Below are positions 41,280 to 51,450 of a DNA stretch of 64,000 nt, in pieces; position 1 is the first letter of the stretch; each line of letters starts with the position of its first letter. Under the pieces are notes generated by a model. The model was not told the DNA's origin and searched no databases. It saw only the letters and a list, made by a program, of their open reading frames with translations. A program made the position numbers and the translations under genes. Source of the DNA: Deltaproteobacteria bacterium (GTDB lineage: Bacteria; Desulfobacterota; DSM-4660; Desulfatiglandales; HGW-15); the NCBI GenBank assembly GCA_016931115.1, contig JAFGFM010000144.1, forward strand, positions 68,008 through 132,007. Direction: 5' to 3'.

Positions 41280-42827
41280 CTACTTAAGCCACTCATTGAC
41301 AACCGTGATATCTTCCTGTGCAAGCAGGCCGACCGCCTTTTTGAGCCTGAAGCTGTAGATAATGTACTCATACAGCGATTTGGTATACTCCTGCTTGGTC
41401 TGGTACAGGTCCCTTTCTGCATCTGTTACAGCAAGGCTGGGGAACATGCCGGACTTGAATCCCTCTTTCTTGGCCGTGAGTGTAATCTGGTTACTGATCA
41501 TTGCCTCTTTCAGGGCATTGATATTCTCTATTGAGCTTTTAATACCCAAGAACGCTGCCTTGGATTCCCTGGTTGCGGATCTGATCTCTCCTTCAAGATC
41601 CTCTTCAGCGGCCTTTAAAAGAAGCCTTGCCTCCCTCACCTTTGATGAGGTGGAGAAGCCGTTAAAAATAGGGATCTTAAGTTCAACTGCCCCTTCCCAT
41701 CTCTCAAGATCGCTCCCGCCGCCATATAATGACCCATCTTCTATATCCCTGTTCATCCTGCCAACAAGATTAAGAGTCGGCAGATGGCCTGAGTTCTGTA
41801 TTGAGACCTCTTTTCCTGCCACAACCACTCTCTTCTCCTTTACAAGCACATCAATATTCTGCCTTCTTGCTGAAGCGACCCATTCATCAACATTATCAGG
41901 TATCGGGGTTATCAACGGGATTGTGTCCCATGTGTATGCCACTGTTTCTCCGGGGTTCAGGCTGTTGAAGCCCTTTATATCTATATCACCTGTCCCAGGA
42001 GATTGTTTTTCATCAGTAACGGCAGCCTTTGTGCCGCCATTAATATTTCTTGCGCCAGGTTCAGAGAGGTAACTATCAATCTTGATATCGGGCAATATTA
42101 TGGTTTTAAGATCATCCATCCGCCTGCCAGTTATCTCAGCCAGCCCCTCAAGGGCATCTTCAAGGATATGGTCAGCCCTTACACGCTTTGTCGTAATAAC
42201 GGCAAGCCGGGCCTTTGCGTCATGGAAATCGGTAACAGGGGCAAGACCGTTTTCGTATCTTTCCTTTGCAAGATTATAATGCATATTAACAGCCGCCTCT
42301 TCCGATCTGCTGAATTGAAGGATATCCTTTGCCTCAAGCGCTGCAAGGTATGCCTCTGTAACCCGGAGAATGAGTGTCTGTTTTGCTGTCTCAAGCTCCA
42401 GATCAGCCTGCCTGACCTCCTCCTTTGCCTGTGAAAGCCTGACAATAGATGAGTATTTAAAAAGAGGCTGGCTCAATACCAGATCAAACCCCTTACCCGG
42501 ATATTTTGCAGTGCTGTCGCCATATACCACAACCTCATTGTCAAATATCTCATGCCTTGAACGTTTGTAAAAGGCATCAAAACTGACAACAGGCAGTATC
42601 TCAGCGAATGCCTGATTATATATTTCAGGCGATGCGTTGTGCCGGTGTATCTCCTTCTGAAAGGTTGCATCATTCTCAAGGGCAACCTGATAGACCTCAA
42701 GCAGATCAGAAGAATATGCAGACAGAGAGCAGATGAACAGTAACAGAGAGCAAAAAGAGAGCCTTATAAATCCTCCTTTAATGCCCCCTGAAAAACAGTA
42801 AAAATATCTTGAGATAATTGAATACAT
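41280..42827 (-). CDS. TolC-family outer-membrane channel protein
   Basis: Signal peptide (…LLLFICSLSAYSSDL) and GGGAGG RBS. Two-fold repeated TolC pattern (LLEVYQVALENDATFQ..., ...AERDLYQTKQEYTKSLYEYI...) with a ~70-aa insertion between the halves. First gene of the operon. Confidence 0.87.
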   Translation of the reverse strand: MYSIISRYFYCFSGGIKGGFIRLSFCSLLLFICSLSAYSSDLLEVYQVALENDATFQKEIHRHNASPEIYNQAFAEILPVVSFDAFYKRSRHEIFDNEVVVYGDSTAKYPGKGFDLVLSQPLFKYSSIVRLSQAKEEVRQADLELETAKQTLILRVTEAYLAALEAKDILQFSRSEEAAVNMHYNLAKERYENGLAPVTDFHDAKARLAVITTKRVRADHILEDALEGLAEITGRRMDDLKTIILPDIKIDSYLSEPGARNINGGTKAAVTDEKQSPGTGDIDIKGFNSLNPGETVAYTWDTIPLITPIPDNVDEWVASARRQNIDVLVKEKRVVVAGKEVSIQNSGHLPTLNLVGRMNRDIEDGSLYGGGSDLERWEGAVELKIPIFNGFSTSSKVREARLLLKAAEEDLEGEIRSATRESKAAFLGIKSSIENINALKEAMISNQITLTAKKEGFKSGMFPSLAVTDAERDLYQTKQEYTKSLYEYIIYSFRLKKAVGLLAQEDITVVNEWLK

Positions 42828-43290
42828 GTTTGCGACCTCCCGATCTAATAGCTGCCGTTTAGAAGAACAAGATAACTAGCCATAATAACTATATTTTTAT
42901 TAATTAATTTACAAGATAAATCAATGTTCCTGATTACTATTCTTGTCTACAGGCAAAGGCAGCTTTTCCTTCTGACAGGAAGCACCGAATTTAAGTTATT
43001 TTTCTTTGAAACCGATATGTTTCTACTACGAAAAGAGTTTTTTTGAAGGTTTTATGGAAACCGGGGCAGTATACCGGTTTATTCATGTGGAGGGTTTGAT
43101 ATTTAATTCGGTTTACTTAATTAATATTCACAACATTTTAAAAAGGTAAGTTATCACACAAAGCCTCAAAGACCACCAAGAAAAACAGTTTTATTTTAAG
43201 TATTTACCTTTGCGACTTTGTGTCTTTGTGTGAGATTCAGCTTTTTTACGAAACCATTAATATTGATTTGCAGTATCGATTAGTCAAGCG

Positions 43291-43329
43291 TTTTATTTTA
43301 AAACCGGGGCAGGTTCAGTAACCTGCCCC
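43291..43329 (-). terminator. Rho-independent terminator after the FecR-domain gene
   Basis: Minus strand: ggggcaggt-tactga-acctgcccc followed by ggttttaaaataaaa. It separates the upstream cluster from the tolC-led operon. Confidence 0.7.
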
Positions 43330-43346
43330 TGTGGTAAATTTATACA

Positions 43347-46300
43347 TCAGGGTTTTACGCTAACATATCCTGCACCCTCGCCGGAAAAGCTGCCCGATGT
43401 GCCTCCGGTATGGGTGCCGCCAGCCACACCGCTGAACTCTATCTGTGCAGTTGTACCCGTGTCTGCTCTGCTCAGGGTGCCATGTCCATTATATACATCA
43501 GCTCCCCATGTGTTATTCATGGTATCCCAATTCTTAATATTAAAATCAACACTGAGATCGCCATTTGTAAGCATTACATTCTCGCCAAAAGGATTGTCTG
43601 TAAATTCGCCGGTTATGTTCCCGGTAGCCCATATCTCAGGGGCGCTGCCTGTTGATGATGCAAAAAAGGTAACATCATGCATTGTAATATCTGTAACATT
43701 GACACCTGTACCTGAGAGGGTTGTTCTGCCTATCTCCACCGCAGGTATATTGAGTGATGAAAGTATTGCACGGCCGGTCTCTGTTGCCGCCATCCCAACA
43801 TATTCGCCTGCCTTTACCCATACCCCTGCAGCGGCTGACTGCCATTTGAGATTTTCTGAATCTGATGGGTCATATGTACCCGCTATCTTACCTGAAGAGA
43901 CCCCTACAATCGGGACAATATCGTTCAGGTCAACCCATGCTCCAACCATATCACCTTCAATCCTGTTATCAGACCACGTGCCATCAACATTATATTTGGC
44001 AATCATCCCTGCGGTGTTGCCAACTCCTTCGATATAAAAATCACTGTGATAATTAATTATCCACCTGCTCTCAGGGGTTCCGCTGTACGTGCCGCCCAGC
44101 ACTGCCTGCCACACACCCCACGGCTCACCATTGATATTACGAATTGTATGATTACCCCCTCCTGCATATAAATACCCGGTTGAGTAACCCATTGAGTCAA
44201 GAAAGTTCCCTTCGCCAGGATATAAATATGAACCATAGTCATAACGGCCCCAGAAATAGAGGGTCTTATCCTTTAGCCCTTCCAGAAGTGTGCCCGGGGT
44301 TGAAGAGGCCATTTCAACCTGCACCGGATATATACCCCCTGTTGCATCCCATATGCCTGATACCCTGTTTGCGCTCCCGGTGTAATCACCAATAAGTATA
44401 CCCGCCCTGTTTACCGGGCTTATATAGACCGCATATATGTTCCCAAATGTGGAAGAACCAAGTACACCACTTATAAATCCAGCATATGCCCCGCCATCAG
44501 GGGTTGTGTCGGTGTCATTATAGGGGTTGTAGCTATCCAGGCGGTTTGCAAATATGAAAGGCTGAGATGGGTTGACTGAAAACTGGGCATCATAATTACC
44601 CAGAAAGGTTATCCCGGCTTTATTTGCATAGGTTGCACCCCACAGGTCATTAAGGCCTCCCATAATGCCGTCGAGCCAGCCTGTATTATACATATTAAAA
44701 CCCTGCCACGAAGAATTGTACTCCCAGGTGTAAGTGCCTGGCGGTGTAGCAAGAGAGGTAAGATCAAACATGGTAAATGGGCCGGTTGATTCATATGAGA
44801 TGAAATTTCCTGTTGAATGGTCATACACCCACTTCTGGCTGAAGAAATTGGCATATGTGCCATCAAAAGACCTTGCATTTACCTGATAATAGGTATCTGT
44901 ACCTGCACCGGCATTATAAAAGGTATAGCCTCCCTCATGGCTGGATAGGTCATAGTGGTAATGATACATGCTCGGGTTACTGATCATGGAGTAGTTGCCA
45001 CCTGTTTCTCCTCTTAACAGATATAATCCACTCCCAAAGCTGCTGCTGAACTCAAGGTCAGCGGACTTCTTATATAAGCCAACAGAGATACCTGACCAGT
45101 TCCCACCACTACCTCCCGGGCCGATAAGCTCGCCATCTATGGTGCCCGTGCTGGTCATGGTTAAAAATTCACCCATAATCTCACCTGATATCCCATCAGT
45201 AAGCCATGCACCGTCTGTGATTTTGGCAGCCCACATGCCGCCATCATTACGCCATTGTCCTGAATCATCCAGATACTCCCCGAAAAGCCCGCTCCCGCTT
45301 ATTGCTCCGGACCATGAATCTGATGCCAGCCCCTCATCATATCCTGCATAACCGAACGACATATTAAGAATACCCCAATCCTCTCCTCTTATATATGAGG
45401 TATCACCGAATCCATGAGCCTTGATGCCTGTCTCGGAACTCCCTGAAAAGGTGCCTGAGAGCATCTCCACTTCAATAAAGCCGTGTCCAATAAAACTGTT
45501 AAACTCATTTACTGTAAAGGTCCTTCCTGTGCTAACCGGTGTCGCATACATTGTACCGGTAGCGCTCCATGCACCTGTGAGGTCAGATGATCCGCTGAAT
45601 TCGCCTGAAAGGATACCAATCCCTGTACCATCAGGGCTCAGGTAAAGGGCATGGATCAGGCCGCTTGCATCAGCCGCGGTTCCTCCAAAGTAACCTGAAT
45701 AGGCCCCTCCACTCTTAAATGTACCTGAAAGGGTTGCCCTGAAGAGGTATAAAGGATCTGATGATGTGTACTGGCCTGAAAGGGTTATTGCAAGAGGCTC
45801 TGTTTCAGTGGCGCCCCAGAAATCCTCTGCCATGCCTGAAATATCGCCTGTAAAGCTCCCTGTGTCTGCAATTATTGTTGTCGTAAAGCTATCCTGGAAT
45901 CGTTGATAATAACCTGCAGATGGAGGATCCGCCAGAAATGCAAGTGAACCGCTCCATGAGCTTTCAGTTACATCGGGCGCAAACTCATCCTCTCCTCCTG
46001 TCTCTATATAAAGCATACCTCCCGGGGCATAATTATAGAATGTTTCAGAGTCTGAATCCATTATCTCGGTTTCACTCATGCCCCTTAAATAGGTTACATC
46101 ATCATCCTTTAGAAAATTAAAATACTCATATTCATATCTTGCCTGCGCATCACTTTTATTATTTCCATTCTTGCGGGGGTCTGTTGAGTAAGGTAGTACA
46201 TACTCCCCTTCATAATGTGTACCTGAGACAAGACCAAGCATATTACCGTTAAAGGCCATCAGGGAAGTGGGTGCTGGCGGTTCTACCGGTGGCGGTTCCA

Positions 46301-47432
46301 CTGGCGGCACTACCGGTGGCTCTACCGGTGGTGGTTCCACTGGTGGCGGCTCTACCTGAGAAGGTTCTACCGGCGGTATATAAGGCGGGTCAACCGGTTC
46401 CACAGGTGTAATTGGCGGAGAAGCTTCAGGGGTTAAAGTTTCTGGCTGCGGAGATGGCACTTCAGGGAGGTCTCCACCTGGTCCAAGATCGGCCATTAAG
46501 GTTTCTTCAGGCACAAACTCGCCGGTGTCCCCGCCATCCCCGATAATCCCGGTATCCCCTGTATCACCTACAGCTCCAGTATCGCCAGTTGAATTCACAG
46601 ACCCGGTCTCCCCTCCGGCTGTTGAACCTTCACCTTCTGCCTGTGTCTCTTCCGGGCTCTCTGATGCTGACCCGCTATCGCCCTCTTGTTCACCTTCAGA
46701 CTCTTCTGATGTGGCCTCTCCTGCCTGATCATCACCCGAGGCCTCACTTTCTATACCCTTTTCTTCATCTGTCCCTTCCTTATCAGCCTCTTCCTCTTCC
46801 GCCGGGGTTGTTTCCCCTTCAAGCCTTTCTATATCATCATCCGAGGCGATCTGAACAACAGGGTGCGCATCCGCATTGGGTATTATCATGGACTCGCCTG
46901 CCTCAATTTTTATCATGTTATCTGGCTCATTTTTGTTATACCCGTAGCCAAATCCCTCTTTGAATGTGGCGCCGCTTTCACCCTTCTCATAATACATGAA
47001 AAAATCAGTACCCCTTACACCGCATACCGATGTTGGGGTGTGCACCTCATACCGGTTTCCATCATTGCCAAGCACGCTGCCCAGCAGCTTTTTTACCCTG
47101 TTCTGGATCTTTCCCCTGAACAGATTAAGCACTGCGCTACGCCTGCCTGACTCATTTATATATTCTGATATCTCTACCCTTGTATTCTGTGCAAGTTTCA
47201 GGATGTTTCCATCTGTAAAGAGGATCTCCGCCTTAGAATTGCTCTTTGACCTTACTATGTCCTTTTCAAAGACTTGAGTCCCGGCATTAACCTCTTCTGC
47301 CGGGCTTCCAGGTCTGGTGATATCAACACGACCTTCAACTTTTGTAAATTTGCCAATAGACTCAGCATAAACCGCATGTGAAGCCACAGCGGCCAGCATA
47401 ATGATAAAAAATCCGGTTAATATCTTTCCCAT
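43347..47432 (-). CDS. Large secreted FecR-domain protein (1,361 aa) with acidic and proline-rich linkers and a long G/S/T/Y/W-rich C-terminal region
   Basis: Sec signal MGKILTGFFIIMLAAVASHAVYA|E. FecR-like block (FTKVEGRVDITRPG...GTQVFEKDIVRSKSNSKAEILFTDGNILKLAQNTRVEI...YEVHTPTSVCGVRGTDF). D/E-rich segment and (VEPPP)n linker. About 900 aa of unknown function with internal repeats. Confidence 0.8.
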   Translation of the reverse strand: MGKILTGFFIIMLAAVASHAVYAESIGKFTKVEGRVDITRPGSPAEEVNAGTQVFEKDIVRSKSNSKAEILFTDGNILKLAQNTRVEISEYINESGRRSAVLNLFRGKIQNRVKKLLGSVLGNDGNRYEVHTPTSVCGVRGTDFFMYYEKGESGATFKEGFGYGYNKNEPDNMIKIEAGESMIIPNADAHPVVQIASDDDIERLEGETTPAEEEEADKEGTDEEKGIESEASGDDQAGEATSEESEGEQEGDSGSASESPEETQAEGEGSTAGGETGSVNSTGDTGAVGDTGDTGIIGDGGDTGEFVPEETLMADLGPGGDLPEVPSPQPETLTPEASPPITPVEPVDPPYIPPVEPSQVEPPPVEPPPVEPPVVPPVEPPPVEPPAPTSLMAFNGNMLGLVSGTHYEGEYVLPYSTDPRKNGNNKSDAQARYEYEYFNFLKDDDVTYLRGMSETEIMDSDSETFYNYAPGGMLYIETGGEDEFAPDVTESSWSGSLAFLADPPSAGYYQRFQDSFTTTIIADTGSFTGDISGMAEDFWGATETEPLAITLSGQYTSSDPLYLFRATLSGTFKSGGAYSGYFGGTAADASGLIHALYLSPDGTGIGILSGEFSGSSDLTGAWSATGTMYATPVSTGRTFTVNEFNSFIGHGFIEVEMLSGTFSGSSETGIKAHGFGDTSYIRGEDWGILNMSFGYAGYDEGLASDSWSGAISGSGLFGEYLDDSGQWRNDGGMWAAKITDGAWLTDGISGEIMGEFLTMTSTGTIDGELIGPGGSGGNWSGISVGLYKKSADLEFSSSFGSGLYLLRGETGGNYSMISNPSMYHYHYDLSSHEGGYTFYNAGAGTDTYYQVNARSFDGTYANFFSQKWVYDHSTGNFISYESTGPFTMFDLTSLATPPGTYTWEYNSSWQGFNMYNTGWLDGIMGGLNDLWGATYANKAGITFLGNYDAQFSVNPSQPFIFANRLDSYNPYNDTDTTPDGGAYAGFISGVLGSSTFGNIYAVYISPVNRAGILIGDYTGSANRVSGIWDATGGIYPVQVEMASSTPGTLLEGLKDKTLYFWGRYDYGSYLYPGEGNFLDSMGYSTGYLYAGGGNHTIRNINGEPWGVWQAVLGGTYSGTPESRWIINYHSDFYIEGVGNTAGMIAKYNVDGTWSDNRIEGDMVGAWVDLNDIVPIVGVSSGKIAGTYDPSDSENLKWQSAAAGVWVKAGEYVGMAATETGRAILSSLNIPAVEIGRTTLSGTGVNVTDITMHDVTFFASSTGSAPEIWATGNITGEFTDNPFGENVMLTNGDLSVDFNIKNWDTMNNTWGADVYNGHGTLSRADTGTTAQIEFSGVAGGTHTGGTSGSFSGEGAGYVSVKP
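46271..46375 (-). repeat. 15-nt tandem repeat encoding (V-E-P-P-P)n
   Basis: Plus strand: ggttc(t/c)ac(c/t)ggtgg(c/t) repeated about 7 times. It encodes ...PPVEPSQVEPPPVEPPPVEPPVVPPVEPPPVEPP... Confidence 0.85.
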
Positions 47433-47617
47433 TTTTACCCCCGGTTTTAAGAGATACAGATTTAGTCCCCGCAGAATATTTCGCGGTTATCCAGATAAAT
47501 ATGAGGGTTAAAAAACTCCTGTACCCTCTCTCGATTCAAATCGACAGGTGGGGGCAAAGACTTAAATTTTTTAACCGGATCAGTTAATGGTATACAGGAT
47601 GCAAATATCTTTTAATA

Positions 47618-49051
47618 TCAGTCTTTTAGTTCTTCAAGATACTCACTGTAATACTGTAGAATAAGATTTCTGAAACCTATGGTTTCACTGAAGGGAGGGA
47701 GGCCATCAAATTCCTTTACCCTGTGCTGGCCCGCATTGTAGGAGGCCAGGGCAAGGCTTATATCACCATTATTGCTCTTCATCAGCCTTGTAAAATAGGT
47801 ATACCCTGCCTCAATAACCTTTTGTGCATCAAACCGGTCATCGTTTTTTCCATCAGCAAGCTCCTTTTTATATTTTTTAAGCAGCTCTTTTCGCTTTTCA
47901 CCTGCGTTTATGGATTTATTTATATGCTCTCTTGCCTGTTTTGCTGCCTGAGTATCATCCCTTTTTGAGATACTTAAAAGCGCCTGCCTGGCCTTTGCCC
48001 TCATTTCCCGCTCGGTCCTGGATAACTCACCGGCTTTTTTATAATAATCAGGCATATATATCTCTTTCAGGCCAAGATCCAGCGCGGTCTGCGGCATAAG
48101 CTGGGTCAGACCGGCAGCACCGACATAAGAAACCGCCCTGGGCCTGAATGATGACTCCTTTTTCATCAGCGCAAGAAAGAGCAGGGGGTCTGTTCGGTAT
48201 ATGCTGCCCCCCTTTTCCAGAGCTGATTCTATAACAGGCAGAAATTCTGGCACCTCTTTATTTACAACCTTTTTCCAGTCCCCATAGTCCGAACCATTAC
48301 CGTTCCTGCTGTTCTTATCCATATTAAAGAGGCTGATTTCCTCCGGGGATGCCTGGGCAATAAATCTGTTAAAGAGACTGTTTACAAACCGAATGTTTTC
48401 AGGGGCAAGAAAATGACTTCCGTGTTTTGTACTGTGACACCTGTTGTAGAAGCAGGCTAGTGTATCCCTAAGGTTATTACCGGTCTCATTCAGGTCTTCA
48501 TTCAGAATGGTGATGATTAGCCTGTTGCAGATCTCGGGGTTAAACCTGTCATCCTGATCTTTATCTAAATTTTTCCGGTAGTTAACAAGCTTTTCCTTTG
48601 CAAGCAGGGAGTTTTCTTTATAGAGGAGGATATTAGAGATAATTTTTTGTATGACAGCATGTTCAGGCTCCCTGTTTCCCCTGTAAGAGAGGGCCTTTTC
48701 CGCAGCCTCAAGGGCATCAGCCGCCTTTTCAAAAAGGGCGACTGCATCATTGTAATCCTGATCAGTATATACTTTTAAGCCAAGCTTTAAGGCCTCCTCA
48801 GGTTTTATGAAAAGTATCCCCTCTTCCCCTCTGTAGGTTTTATTGCTATCTGAAAGCCTGATCTGTTCTGCATTATATTCAACAATATACCCTGCTATCT
48901 TCTGAACAGCAGTTGTATTATTATCCGCCTGGCAATTAATGGAAGGGTAGAGGAAAACAGTTAATGAATATACTGCTATTACCAGGTTTTTTATTGCTTT
49001 TGTATTAATTTTCAAATTATTTCTCAAATCAGCCGGGTTGGCAGCAAACAA
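47618..49051 (-). CDS. Lytic transglycosylase (SLT-domain) protein
   Basis: The C-terminal catalytic pattern LALMKKESSFRPRAVSYVGAAGLTQLMP ... LALASYNAG is the E-S ... GLMQ ... YNAG family signature. The N-terminal helical region is preceded by a signal-like segment. The start codon is uncertain: TTG at 49051, with in-frame TTGs at 49027 and 49015. Confidence 0.8.
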   Translation of the reverse strand: MFAANPADLRNNLKINTKAIKNLVIAVYSLTVFLYPSINCQADNNTTAVQKIAGYIVEYNAEQIRLSDSNKTYRGEEGILFIKPEEALKLGLKVYTDQDYNDAVALFEKAADALEAAEKALSYRGNREPEHAVIQKIISNILLYKENSLLAKEKLVNYRKNLDKDQDDRFNPEICNRLIITILNEDLNETGNNLRDTLACFYNRCHSTKHGSHFLAPENIRFVNSLFNRFIAQASPEEISLFNMDKNSRNGNGSDYGDWKKVVNKEVPEFLPVIESALEKGGSIYRTDPLLFLALMKKESSFRPRAVSYVGAAGLTQLMPQTALDLGLKEIYMPDYYKKAGELSRTEREMRAKARQALLSISKRDDTQAAKQAREHINKSINAGEKRKELLKKYKKELADGKNDDRFDAQKVIEAGYTYFTRLMKSNNGDISLALASYNAGQHRVKEFDGLPPFSETIGFRNLILQYYSEYLEELKD

Positions 49052-49096
49052 ACCATTGATAAATCATAGAGTAATCAGCTCTTGAAAAATTTATGC

Positions 49097-49116
49097 GCCC
49101 CGGAAAAACCCGGGGC
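49097..49116 (-). terminator. Possible terminator hairpin after skp
   Basis: gccccgg-aaaaac-ccggggc stem-loop. On the minus strand it is followed by cataaattttt, an interrupted U-tract. Confidence 0.35.
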
Positions 49117-49139
49117 ACTTTATATCGGTAAAAGTTTTT

Positions 49140-49655
49140 TTAGGGCTTTGAATCGTATAGTTTTATGATCTGATCAGTTACATCAATCGCTTTATCAGAA
49201 GCCACTATTGAACTCTTTTCAACTATTATTGAAAGCTTCTCTTTGTTCAGGTATTCCTGGGCTGCATCCCTTATGGCTGTTAAAAATTTGCGCCCCAGTT
49301 CTGTATCCTTGGCCTGCATTTCCGCCTCAATCTCTTCCTTCATACGGGGGAGATCCCTTGCTTCCTTTCTGAGGGTCTCTGCCTTGTCTCGCCTGACCTG
49401 TTCAGTCATTGTGCTCCCCTTGGTGGCTAGTTCGTTATCCAGGGCCTGAGCAGCGCTCTGCCTTTTTATGAGTTCCTGCCTTTTGGCCTCAAACTCCTTT
49501 GTGAAATCAGCGCGCGCTTTAGTGATTTTTGCTGACTGCGACAAAATTTTCTGGGTATCTATTACACCTATCTTTACTTCTGCTGCAAAAGCGGGAAAAA
49601 GATTGGCTGCAATGAGCGCAAGAAAACAGATTAACAATAGCGTGAGTCTTTTCAT
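49140..49655 (-). CDS. skp: OmpH/Skp-family periplasmic chaperone
   Basis: Signal peptide followed by KIGVIDTQKILSQSAKITKARADFTKEFEAKRQELIKRQ..., a long charged coiled region. 171 aa, typical Skp size. Confidence 0.85.
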   Translation of the reverse strand: MKRLTLLLICFLALIAANLFPAFAAEVKIGVIDTQKILSQSAKITKARADFTKEFEAKRQELIKRQSAAQALDNELATKGSTMTEQVRRDKAETLRKEARDLPRMKEEIEAEMQAKDTELGRKFLTAIRDAAQEYLNKEKLSIIVEKSSIVASDKAIDVTDQIIKLYDSKP

Positions 49656-49769
49656 AATGATCTTCCTTTCAATAAGATATTAAAGTAATAAGTAATTCAG
49701 GGGTAGAAAAATGTCAAGTGACACCTCATTATCGGTAAGAATCCCCCTCAATGAGGTGTATAAAGCTGA

Positions 49770-51293
49770 TCAAAACCTGTATTCCATACCTAATGTATAG
49801 ATATTTCTTTTATAATCATATATGCCGATATTGGAATCGGTTCTCATCCTGGAGTATTGAATTACTATAGTGGCATTGCTTTCCCAGTTCCATGAAAAGC
49901 CGCCTGACATGGTATATATCTTGTCCTCTCTTTTTAGATCAAAGACCGTATGAAGGTGTTTAAACTCCTGGTCGCTGATCTGGCCGCTCAACTGCAGCTT
50001 GATATCCTTATATATCGGCATTGCATAATTGGCGGAAAAACCTAACATGCTGTTATCCCAGTTTCTGCCCTCTGTATCCATGATATCAGACATAAACCTG
50101 AGATTCAGGAAGTAGTCCTTTTTAAAAAGCCATAAATAACTTATGTAGCTTTTATACCCCTGAGCGTCCCGGTCTTCTTCTGGGGCAAGGGCAGGCCTGA
50201 AGTACTGGCTGTTTGAATAGCCTGAAAATATCTCAAGGAGCTGCGTATCTTTTACTGACATCCTAAGGAGAGGGCCGGTATTGAATGTACCTGAATACTC
50301 TTTAAAGTCAGGGTTTCTTACAAATGCATGGTTATAACTTGTGGCAAGATAGATCGCATACTTGCCGAAATTGTAACCCGGTGTAATGGAGATACTGTTT
50401 GAGATGGAGTCATGGGTAAACCTGTTTTTATCGTGTGTGCTGGCGCCCAGGGCATACTGGGCATTAAACAGCCACCTGCTCTTAAGGTAGGGGGTATAAT
50501 TGACGCGGAAGGATGTATTTAAGACCCCGCTCCCCTCATTTGTGATCCCTGTGGCAAATGCCTGGTCATCAGGCTTTAAGACCATGTTATCATCATACTG
50601 CCCGAATACCCCTATGGTGAACCTTAAGGGTCTTTCAAGTTCGATCCTCTGCTCCACCGCTGCAAGATACTGCCTTGCAAACCCGGCCATATCTGACTGG
50701 GGGTCACTCAGGATGGCCGCCTCAAAGCTCTTTTTTGCCTCCCTCAGATCGCGCTCTTTTATAAAGCCCATGGCAATCCTCATATCAGCGGCCTGAGTAA
50801 TCTTGGGGTCTATGGCCTTGGCCCTTGCAAAGGCATCATTGGCCTCTTTTATCCTGCCCTCTTCCGTGAGGATAAGCCCCTTTAAAAAGGCGGTCTTGGC
50901 AGGGAAGATATTTTCTGTTTCTGCGACTTCAATCCAGTGCTTTGCAACATCCAGCTTATCAAGCTGCATAGCAACATCCACAACCTCGATAAGGGCCTCC
51001 TTGATCCTGGGGGTAAGATTCACTGCATCCAGCAGGTTTGTAAGGGCCTTTTCATAATCCATTGTCTGTTTATAGGCCATGCCAAGGAAGAATGCGGCAG
51101 CAGACGAGCCAGGTTCATCAGCCCTGGCCCTGGTGAGGATTACTATTGCCTCTTCATAACTTTCATCCCTGTATTCATCCATGCCTTTTTGAAGGTTATC
51201 TGATTGCTCACAAAAAATATTCAGGGGAAAAAGTATAATAAAAAGCAGAGAGATTAAAGCAAATGAGGAAATCCTGGTTGCGATCTTTATCAT
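49770..51293 (-). CDS. TPR-repeat + C-terminal outer-membrane beta-barrel protein (Slam/DUF560-like architecture; family assignment tentative)
   Basis: Signal peptide. About 200 aa of TPR-like helices (AIVILTRARADEPGSSAAAFFLGMAYKQTMDYEKALTNL...). Then ~290 aa of alternating beta-strand pattern ending in the OMP C-terminal signature ...YTLGMEYRF. Confidence 0.65.
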   Translation of the reverse strand: MIKIATRISSFALISLLFIILFPLNIFCEQSDNLQKGMDEYRDESYEEAIVILTRARADEPGSSAAAFFLGMAYKQTMDYEKALTNLLDAVNLTPRIKEALIEVVDVAMQLDKLDVAKHWIEVAETENIFPAKTAFLKGLILTEEGRIKEANDAFARAKAIDPKITQAADMRIAMGFIKERDLREAKKSFEAAILSDPQSDMAGFARQYLAAVEQRIELERPLRFTIGVFGQYDDNMVLKPDDQAFATGITNEGSGVLNTSFRVNYTPYLKSRWLFNAQYALGASTHDKNRFTHDSISNSISITPGYNFGKYAIYLATSYNHAFVRNPDFKEYSGTFNTGPLLRMSVKDTQLLEIFSGYSNSQYFRPALAPEEDRDAQGYKSYISYLWLFKKDYFLNLRFMSDIMDTEGRNWDNSMLGFSANYAMPIYKDIKLQLSGQISDQEFKHLHTVFDLKREDKIYTMSGGFSWNWESNATIVIQYSRMRTDSNIGIYDYKRNIYTLGMEYRF

Positions 51294-51450
51294 GTAAGCC
51301 CCCTTTCATCCTGTCCGCTATAGATCTCTTAAACATATGCCCGTTTTAATGGGATATGATAGGCATCTCAGCGAATTTTGTCAATAATATAGCCAATCTT
51401 ACATAGCTAACATTTAATATTGAAAATGTATCTAAACATCTACAAACATC

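Follow-up and report, generated by a model that had tools for sequence, protein, structure and literature searches.

Lone outer-membrane translocons for proteins delivered by Sec are few, and comprise the autotransporters, two-partner secretion and the Slam or type 11 secretion system (T11SS). To our knowledge, T11SS has so far been defined by the DUF560 family and is confined to Proteobacteria. T11SS uses as its translocon an outer-membrane protein (OMP) with tetratricopeptide repeats (TPR) and a 14-stranded barrel, its cargo is encoded next to it and recognized via a C-terminal β domain, and Skp serves as the holdase (PMC8406197, PMC9090332, PMC12282271). Skp is required for Slam-dependent translocation of TbpB (PMC9090332), and strand number separates the DUF560 translocons, with 14 strands, from the PgaA-type polysaccharide porins, with 16 (PMC8406197). 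In this study, we analyzed four consecutive, co-directional open reading frames (ORFs) on the minus strand at positions 43347-51293 of a 64,000-nucleotide stretch from a Deltaproteobacteria bacterium (GenBank assembly GCA_016931115.1, contig JAFGFM010000144.1, positions 68,008 to 132,007; hereafter the window). They encode a TPR-barrel OMP (the barrel gene), a Skp-family chaperone (skp), a lytic transglycosylase with an SLT domain (slt) and a large protein with an N-terminal FecR domain (fecR), whose product we refer to as the cargo.

We find that these genes belong to an envelope module that is complete in itself, with the barrel protein and the FecR-capped protein as the cognate pair at its core. 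The module is widespread in sulfate-reducing and syntrophic "delta" bacteria and belongs to no described family. By analogy with T11SS, we put at about even the chance that the TPR-barrel protein serves a fibrous surface protein, delivered by Sec, as a Slam-like outer-membrane translocon or anchor.

The barrel and FecR-family genes form a conserved pair

The module can be described by what is directly observed, namely its gene content, architecture, pairing, synteny and predicted folds. An earlier note, made from the letters of this DNA, had called the four products a TPR-containing barrel OMP, a Skp, an SLT enzyme and a FecR-domain protein; Pfam matches and the sequences themselves bear out all four calls, and because all four proteins have many homologues, none of the ORFs is a chance reading frame. 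We gathered 79 loci from genomes that encode a barrel homologue, taking up to 10 kb on either side, and searched them with all window proteins. Pairing could be assessed in 75 of these, the other four (L008, L032, L039 and L078) ending at or just after the barrel gene. A FecR-family gene adjoins the barrel gene in every one of the 75, which come from Desulfatiglandales, Desulfobacterales and Syntrophales, and in nearly all loci it lies downstream on the same strand, usually after a gap of less than 300 nt. The genomes closest to the window carry the label Desulfatiglans. Two genomes (L061 and L067) hold two pairs each; the paralogues are ~50% identical in the barrel protein and 57% in the FecR N-domain, whereas comparison of each pair with its orthologue across the two genomes gives 82-87% identity, indicating that barrel-FecR pairs duplicate and persist as units. 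Clustering of the ORFs from all 79 loci brought out no recurrent neighbour besides the FecR-family gene, Skp and regulators.

The regulator is a VpsT/CsgD-like LuxR protein (GerE, 2e-21) encoded directly 3' of the barrel gene in 12 loci (L006, L012, L015, L016, L018, L024, L032, L033, L037, L055, L057 and L079). Together with a small PilZ protein (7.5e-7), present in most cases, its gene separates barrel and fecR in 11-12 Desulfobacterales loci; L032 ends before fecR. Such neighbours suggest control of the cyclic di-GMP (c-di-GMP) or biofilm-matrix type. They also bear on the idea of FecR-type cell-surface signalling, in which a signal from outside would be perceived by the barrel and passed on by the FecR domain to a regulator. 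The FecR domain itself, and the presence of LuxR-type and PilZ genes beside the pair in some loci, fit this idea, but the cargo has no transmembrane or anti-sigma segment and its N-terminus is a cleaved signal peptide, neither an extracytoplasmic function (ECF) sigma factor nor a TonB-dependent receptor is a recurrent neighbour, and 400-3,900 amino acids (aa) of β-rich repeats together with a conserved terminal domain would be left unexplained. We give signalling very little credence.

Individual loci depart from the usual arrangement. In a close relative, L004 (10001-14302), the barrel gene is frameshifted into two pieces and the FecR gene encodes only 143 aa, matching query residues 1-104 and 1319-1361; no tolC or giant-protein operon of the kind described below lies downstream. 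This damage could be joint decay or an assembly error. In L003 (11657-17986+), two FecR-family genes (1,144 and 1,405 aa) follow a single barrel gene, with skp and slt between them, so that one barrel may serve more than one cargo. In L016, L055 and L057, a gene for a PMT_2-family membrane glycosyltransferase, with a C-terminal TPR region in the full-length protein of L057, directly follows fecR; the Ser/Thr/Pro-rich linker of the cargo may be glycosylated. In L073 and L077, a conserved protein of 264-271 aa with a signal peptide and a basic, coiled-coil-like tail is encoded directly after a minimal fecR of 611-615 aa, and has no Pfam match at E <= 0.01.

The barrel protein has a Slam-like predicted topology

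Homologues of the barrel protein are ~505 aa long and conserved, with a mean column identity of 64%. The window protein matches Pfam TPR_2, TPR_8 and TPR_19, and its C-terminal barrel ends in ...GMEYRF, a YRF β-signal. An AlphaFold2 (AF2) model built on 19 homologues (predicted local distance difference test, pLDDT, 86) places TPR helices at residues 32-219 (~190 aa) and 14 β-strands at 223-506. By the 14- versus 16-strand criterion the modelled topology is Slam-like, which does not establish family membership.

With regard to family, the TPR_Slam hidden Markov model (HMM) matches all 19 homologues at E <= 1 (best 3.3e-6), the window protein scoring 14.1 bits against a cutoff of 35.2, and PF04575 (DUF560) appears in the precomputed Pfam lists of 6 of 120 barrel homologues. 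DUF2860 (PF11059; 1.5e-4, 21.5 bits, cutoff 22.9) and BBP2_2 (PF10082; 4e-4, 19.7 bits, cutoff 23.7) match the C-terminal strands only of the window protein; among the 19 homologues, BBP2_2 touches 18 (best 1.3e-6) and DUF2860 touches 14 (best 2.7e-9). The C-terminus of EpsL (TIGR03014) gives 2.8e-9 and 36 bits, far under its cutoff of 275, and TIGR03016, a family of PEP-CTERM-associated OMPs, gives 21 bits against a cutoff of 91. In a Foldseek search with the model, BcsC came out on top (E ~1e-13, template-modelling (TM) score 0.36-0.39, root-mean-square deviation ~12 Å), a rank explained by its TPR-plus-barrel architecture, and was followed by the 14-stranded barrels OmpG, CymA, FadL and TodX; no Slam structure was among the PDB matches, and a PDB sequence search found no relatives beyond TPR proteins. 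We therefore rejected a DUF560 assignment, for which there is neither an HMM match nor a Slam relative in the PDB by sequence or fold. The likeness to Slam/DUF560 translocators that the earlier note had drawn holds for the predicted topology of TPR and 14 strands and not for the family; the HMM matches, sub-threshold or marginal, are to DUF2860, BBP2_2 and EpsL. As to lipoprotein status, both the barrel protein and the SLT enzyme have a Cys near the signal-peptide end, with flanks that make atypical lipoboxes, and we make no claim of lipidation.

Given these matches, the barrel protein could be viewed as an exopolysaccharide porin of the synthase-dependent type (BcsC/PgaA/PelB-like), the FecR protein then being an accessory in the periplasm or at the surface, such as a scaffold or polymer-binding fibre. 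In support of this are the first rank of BcsC, the matches of the C-terminal strands to EpsL and TIGR03016, both from polysaccharide loci, and the PilZ and VpsT/CsgD-like genes in 11-12 loci and PMT_2 glycosyltransferase gene in three. Yet the model has 14 strands and not 16-18, the EpsL and TIGR03016 scores fall far short of their cutoffs, ORF clustering of the 79 loci reveals no recurrent synthase or other glycosyltransferase, and the invariant partner is a protein rather than a set of enzymes. A porin of this kind thus seems to us quite improbable.

The cargo has conserved ends and an elastic middle

All full-length cargo homologues from the loci begin with a signal peptidase I (SPase-I) signal peptide that is directly followed by the FecR domain, with no lipobox, and then by a low-complexity linker that is acidic, Gly/Ser-rich or proline-rich. 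The window linker, residues 201-400, has 25% Glu and then 34% Pro. The β-rich region beyond it is rich in Gly/Ser/Thr/Tyr and contains an internal repeat (residues ~540-690 versus ~915-1050, E 1e-10). For the FecR part, NCBIfam gives sub-threshold matches to Lsa33 (3.8e-14) and LipL45 (1.1e-9), with 52.6 bits against a cutoff of 420.

In nearly all homologues, the extreme C-terminus is a conserved domain of ~260 aa. An exhaustive HMMER profile search with this domain returned 679 clusters at 50% identity, 478 of them with E <= 1e-30; a word-indexed homologue search with the same profile gave 10 short fragments only. The domain is C-terminal in all but three of the best 150 of the 679 cluster representatives, whose lengths range from ~560 to 4,121 aa. 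The FecR N-domain is present in 74 of the 111 listed representatives that reach 520 aa or more, while the other 37 are without a signal peptide and look 5'-truncated; on these counts we rejected the idea of the domain as a portable export tag on diverse cargo. In P0170, P0185 and P0138 the domain is internal or doubled, lying at residues 1546-1807 of 3,614 in P0170, and these proteins may represent fused tandem cargo genes or read-through gene calls.

The AF2 model of the terminal domain (pLDDT 89, predicted TM score 0.88) consists of seven strands, a helical hairpin of two helices and eight strands. The 8-strand subdomain is single-copy in 37 of 38 complete proteins and present twice in one, and the 7-strand unit occurs 1-4 times, rising with cargo length. 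Searches with the terminal domain gave no Pfam match at E <= 10, no PDB sequence match and no Foldseek fold match in PDB or BFVD (best E 8e-3, TM <0.2). Two candidate interpretations were set aside. A TbpB-like fold was considered for the similar-looking motif F.G.AAG...FSGTAAG, and Pfam, PDB and Foldseek against PDB and BFVD were all negative. A membrane-embedded barrel anchor was rejected because the strands of the terminal subdomain lack an alternating, lipid-facing hydrophobic pattern. Nor does the subdomain end in an aromatic β-signal; its last strand is followed by tails that vary in length.

Ig-like Big_13 and Big_3_3 domains are typical of surface proteins. Within the cargo family, P0154, P0156 and P0176 contain Big_13 (up to 64.5 bits), Big_3_3 and Y_Y_Y domains; in P0154 and P0156, the Ig-like domains come just after the linker (residues ~311-620), and P0176 is without the FecR N-domain and looks 5'-truncated. 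Between close relatives, the cargo is 74-77% identical, as compared with 87-89% for the barrel and 95-96% for Skp. Together, the Ig-like domains of some members and the faster divergence of the cargo suggest a surface location.

A surface location is not the sole way to accommodate a FecR-capped protein. The FecR protein could instead be periplasmic and the barrel only its docking site in the outer membrane, which nothing would cross; the β-rich protein would form a tether from outer membrane to peptidoglycan, or a periplasmic scaffold, and the SLT enzyme would remodel the wall around it. Binding of OMP domains in the periplasm is the classical role of FecR domains, and a proline-rich spacer is likewise a usual feature of proteins that span the periplasm, TonB among them. 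The Desulfatiglandales module moreover sits among the housekeeping genes clpB, hisD, purC and dnaK, and slt is linked to it in that lineage. Set against this, a cargo of up to ~4,100 aa, with Big_13 domains, rapid divergence and variation in length, points to the surface; a 14-stranded barrel kept at >=50% identity across orders exceeds what a docking site needs; and a holdase chaperone is expected for a substrate that is kept unfolded. We rate such an intra-envelope complex as unlikely.

Skp and the SLT enzyme accompany the pair in part of its range

The window Skp scores 81.6 bits against a cutoff of 32.4 and has a signal peptide ending in ...PAFA/AE. A Skp gene is found between the barrel and FecR genes, or as the next gene after them, in ~16 loci that show two gene orders, and this synteny suggests that the chaperone is probably dedicated to the cargo. 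The SLT enzyme scores 85.4 bits against a cutoff of 21.3. Its catalytic region (~47642-48214) is split by an insertion of ~90 aa, and the motifs KKESSF (with the catalytic E-S), GLTQLM and SYNAG can be read in the translation; from the SLT domain and the catalytic Glu-Ser motif it is predicted to be a family-1 lytic transglycosylase, whose true start codon may lie ~12 codons downstream. The best NCBIfam match is to a flagellar-assembly lytic transglycosylase (1.4e-17, under cutoff). Apart from L019, all loci in which an orthologue (465-481 aa) accompanies the module are of the Desulfatiglandales type; three gene orders occur.

The giant-protein exporter operon is a recent neighbour

Downstream (3') of fecR, on the same strand, are tolC (41280-42827), an ORF of 9,783 aa and genes for GAF-HlyD, M50-HlyD, SecA-like and HlyD proteins; on the other side, the divergent neighbours upstream of the barrel gene are clpB, a nudix gene and hisD. 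The giant 9,783-aa protein (11865-41216, minus strand) begins ...RRRMLFETLEKRILLSADP and contains no cysteine.

The earlier note had left two options for the four genes. The first was that they are an accessory module for assembling the TolC/SecA-like/M50-HlyD exporter of the giant protein. Chaperones and lytic transglycosylases are frequent companions of trans-envelope machines, and the four genes lie on the same strand immediately 5' of tolC both in the window and in relatives whose FecR proteins are 74-79% identical. It is only in those relatives, however, that tolC and the giant gene follow fecR. In two Desulfatiglandales assemblies at 45-49% identity the module is kept, in the order hisD-nudix-HU-clpB / barrel-skp-(slt)-fecR, and is followed by purC, grpE and dnaK. 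The 79 other loci, with flanks of up to 10 kb, gave no match to TolC, the SecA-like protein, M50-HlyD or the giant protein. That adjacency is restricted to close relatives while the module is retained argues for the exporter operon as a recent neighbour and not a partner. The terminal domain of the cargo was not found in the giant protein, which was for this reason rejected as a second cargo of the barrel, and a conserved terminator and a promoter-like sequence 5' of tolC part the two units. We conclude that the module and the tolC/giant-protein operon are separate units in both transcription and evolution, and an accessory role in giant-protein export strikes us as highly improbable.

The second option, an independent system with the FecR protein as its cargo, agrees with the synteny, the two genes being adjacent in every locus that could be assessed and duplicated together; surface export itself is a step that we infer.

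Transcription signals

The coordinates of the module's features are given in Table 1. The promoter is a putative one for the barrel gene, proposed from its near-consensus match. The position of the skp-slt hairpin is kept, with compensatory changes in the stem, in six relatives (L002, L010, L081, L084, L004 and L085). This conserved, strong hairpin with its T-run suggests a difference in expression level between barrel-skp and slt-fecR, and it may act as an attenuator that splits the block into two transcripts. The terminator that the earlier note had placed between the two units, at the end of fecR, is present and kept in the orthologous spacers of L081 and L082; it was missing from the terminator scan because its tail has four T only. 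The A/T-rich, promoter-like sequence 5' of tolC is also conserved. In Rfam, the spacers gave no significant match to riboswitches or other known RNAs. The spacer between fecR and tolC, 519 nt long, contains at ~43150-43231 an extended imperfect inverted repeat (TCTCACACAAAGAC...GGCTTTGTGTGATAA), which lacks an Rfam match and is not present in the shorter orthologous spacers of L081 and L082.

Table 1. Positions of the module's genes, protein regions and candidate transcription signals in the window.
Feature	Position	Strand	Evidence or remark
Putative sigma-70-like promoter, TTGACA-17-TATCAT	51356..51384	minus	5' of barrel gene; 11/12 consensus positions, best match in the region
TPR + 14-stranded β-barrel OMP (predicted), 507 aa	49770..51293	minus	Pfam TPR, AF2 model
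Barrel protein, signal peptide	~51210-51293	minus	
Barrel protein, TPR region	50637-51200	minus	
Barrel protein, barrel	49776-50627	minus	
Skp/OmpH-family periplasmic chaperone, 171 aa	49140..49655	minus	OmpH PF03938, E 8.5e-23
Terminator-like hairpin, skp/slt spacer	49095..49118	minus	10-bp stem, 8 G-C pairs, T-rich tail
SLT-domain lytic transglycosylase (predicted), 477 aa	47618..49051	minus	SLT PF01464, E 2.7e-24
FecR-capped secreted protein, 1,361 aa	43347..47432	minus	Signal peptide ...AVYA/ES; FecR, E 1.2e-11
Cargo, signal peptide	47364-47432	minus	
Cargo, FecR domain	46833-47357	minus	PF04773
Cargo, linker	46233-46832	minus	Acidic, then proline-rich
Cargo, β-rich repeat region	44196-46232	minus	
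Cargo, conserved C-terminal domain	43350-44195	minus	
Terminator hairpin ending the module, before tolC promoter region	43306..43329	minus	9-bp GC-rich stem, 6-nt loop, GGTTTT

Discussion

How might a module of this composition work? In our proposal, the large β-rich protein would leave the Sec channel and be held unfolded by the module's own Skp paralogue. The TPR-barrel protein would recognize the single-copy C-terminal domain, and the chain would be threaded outward C-terminus first. The fibre would then fold outside the cell, its length set by repeat number, while the FecR domain would remain periplasmic and anchor the chain by docking on the TPR domain, the barrel lumen being occupied by the low-complexity linker. 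In the Desulfatiglandales lineage, the SLT enzyme would open the peptidoglycan locally. We propose C-terminus-first threading with periplasmic retention of FecR because both ends of the cargo are conserved and its middle is elastic. Elsewhere, FecR domains bind periplasmic domains of OMPs. Direction and anchoring are, like export, inferred here.

Several points weigh against a Slam-like translocon or anchor. The window barrel protein has no match to DUF560 (PF04575) at E <= 1, nor is DUF560 among the 25 families most often matched by its 19 homologues, and it is BcsC that heads the fold matches. The terminal domain of the cargo is unlike the barrels of TbpB, fHbp and hemophilin in PDB sequence and Foldseek searches and, since it never occurs on other types of cargo, is not necessarily a targeting tag. 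More than half of the loci lack Skp, and ~90% lack the SLT enzyme. Finally, the threading direction and the anchoring role of FecR are drawn from analogy.

If the protein is exported, the export mode of lone translocons would extend to another phylum, for the pair has the logic of T11SS without family-level homology and spans three orders of anaerobic sulfate-reducing and syntrophic bacteria. If this is true, the module may identify a major surface fibre of poorly studied organisms and could matter for aggregation, syntrophic contacts and biofilms. Many proteins whose present annotation goes no further than 'FecR domain-containing' or 'tetratricopeptide repeat protein' would also gain a possible role. 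The minimal cargo members of ~560-615 aa (e.g., L077 and L079) make the hypothesis testable in E. coli.

Comparison with known systems

The most distant comparison is with LapA-type adhesins, and it is one of function only. They too start with a folded domain, continue through a linker into a long repetitive body and carry an export determinant at the C-terminus, and c-di-GMP-linked neighbours are shared with some loci here. In LapA, the N-terminal plug domain retains the adhesin in its outer-membrane channel. The LapA route is type 1 secretion through a TolC-like channel with no Sec signal, whereas the cargo here is Sec-dependent and paired with a TPR-barrel; no homology between the LapA system and the barrel-FecR module was detected.

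FecR/PupR anti-sigma regulators and the Leptospira FecR lipoproteins LipL45 and Lsa33 share the PF04773 domain with the cargo. The cargo, however, has no anti-sigma or transmembrane part and no lipobox, and its FecR domain directly follows a cleaved signal peptide and is itself followed by the linker, repeats and terminal domain. In the literature, we found nothing that links FecR-domain proteins to TPR barrels or to these taxa.

DUF2860, BBP2_2 and EpsL (TIGR03014) provide the only barrel HMMs that match, and NCBI names some homologues 'DUF2860 family protein'. The matches, though, span only the last 80-135 residues and are mostly under curated cutoffs. For these families we found no account of a TPR domain or a cargo partner, nor any work on the function of DUF2860.

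BcsC, PgaA and PelB share the order of TPR followed by a C-terminal barrel, BcsC being the best whole-chain fold match, and some loci here have neighbours of the c-di-GMP type (PilZ, VpsT-like regulator). They differ in having 16 strands where 14 are predicted here and a TPR region much longer than the ~190 aa of this protein; moreover, no synthase or polymer-modifying gene recurs around the module, whose invariant partner is a large protein.

It is with T11SS/Slam that the comparison goes furthest, and here too there are differences. The barrel has no PF04575 match, and the terminal domain of the cargo matches neither the TbpBBD/Lipoprotein_5 HMMs nor the TbpB, fHbp or hemophilin folds. Every cargo opens with a FecR domain and none is lipidated, the hosts are Thermodesulfobacteriota and not Proteobacteria, and there are no TonB or receptor neighbours. 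It is possible, though somewhat doubtful, that we are dealing with a distinct export and surface-tethering system of Thermodesulfobacteriota, unrelated to T11SS at the family level, in which the barrel would thread a fibre of 0.5-4 kaa (thousand aa) and FecR would be the periplasmic stopper on the TPR domain; with such a built-in anchor, it would amount to a new type of secretion system. The features in common are nonetheless several: an OMP with N-terminal periplasmic TPR and a barrel of 14 strands (predicted here), a cargo gene next to the OMP gene, a Sec-dependent cargo with a variable body and a single-copy C-terminal β domain (of eight predicted strands here), and the involvement of Skp, through a gene in the locus here and as an experimentally demonstrated requirement for Slam/TbpB. 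Thus, while the two sequence signatures by which T11SS is defined, DUF560 in the OMP and TbpBBD in the cargo, are both absent, by analogy it is T11SS that the module would most resemble in the way it works.

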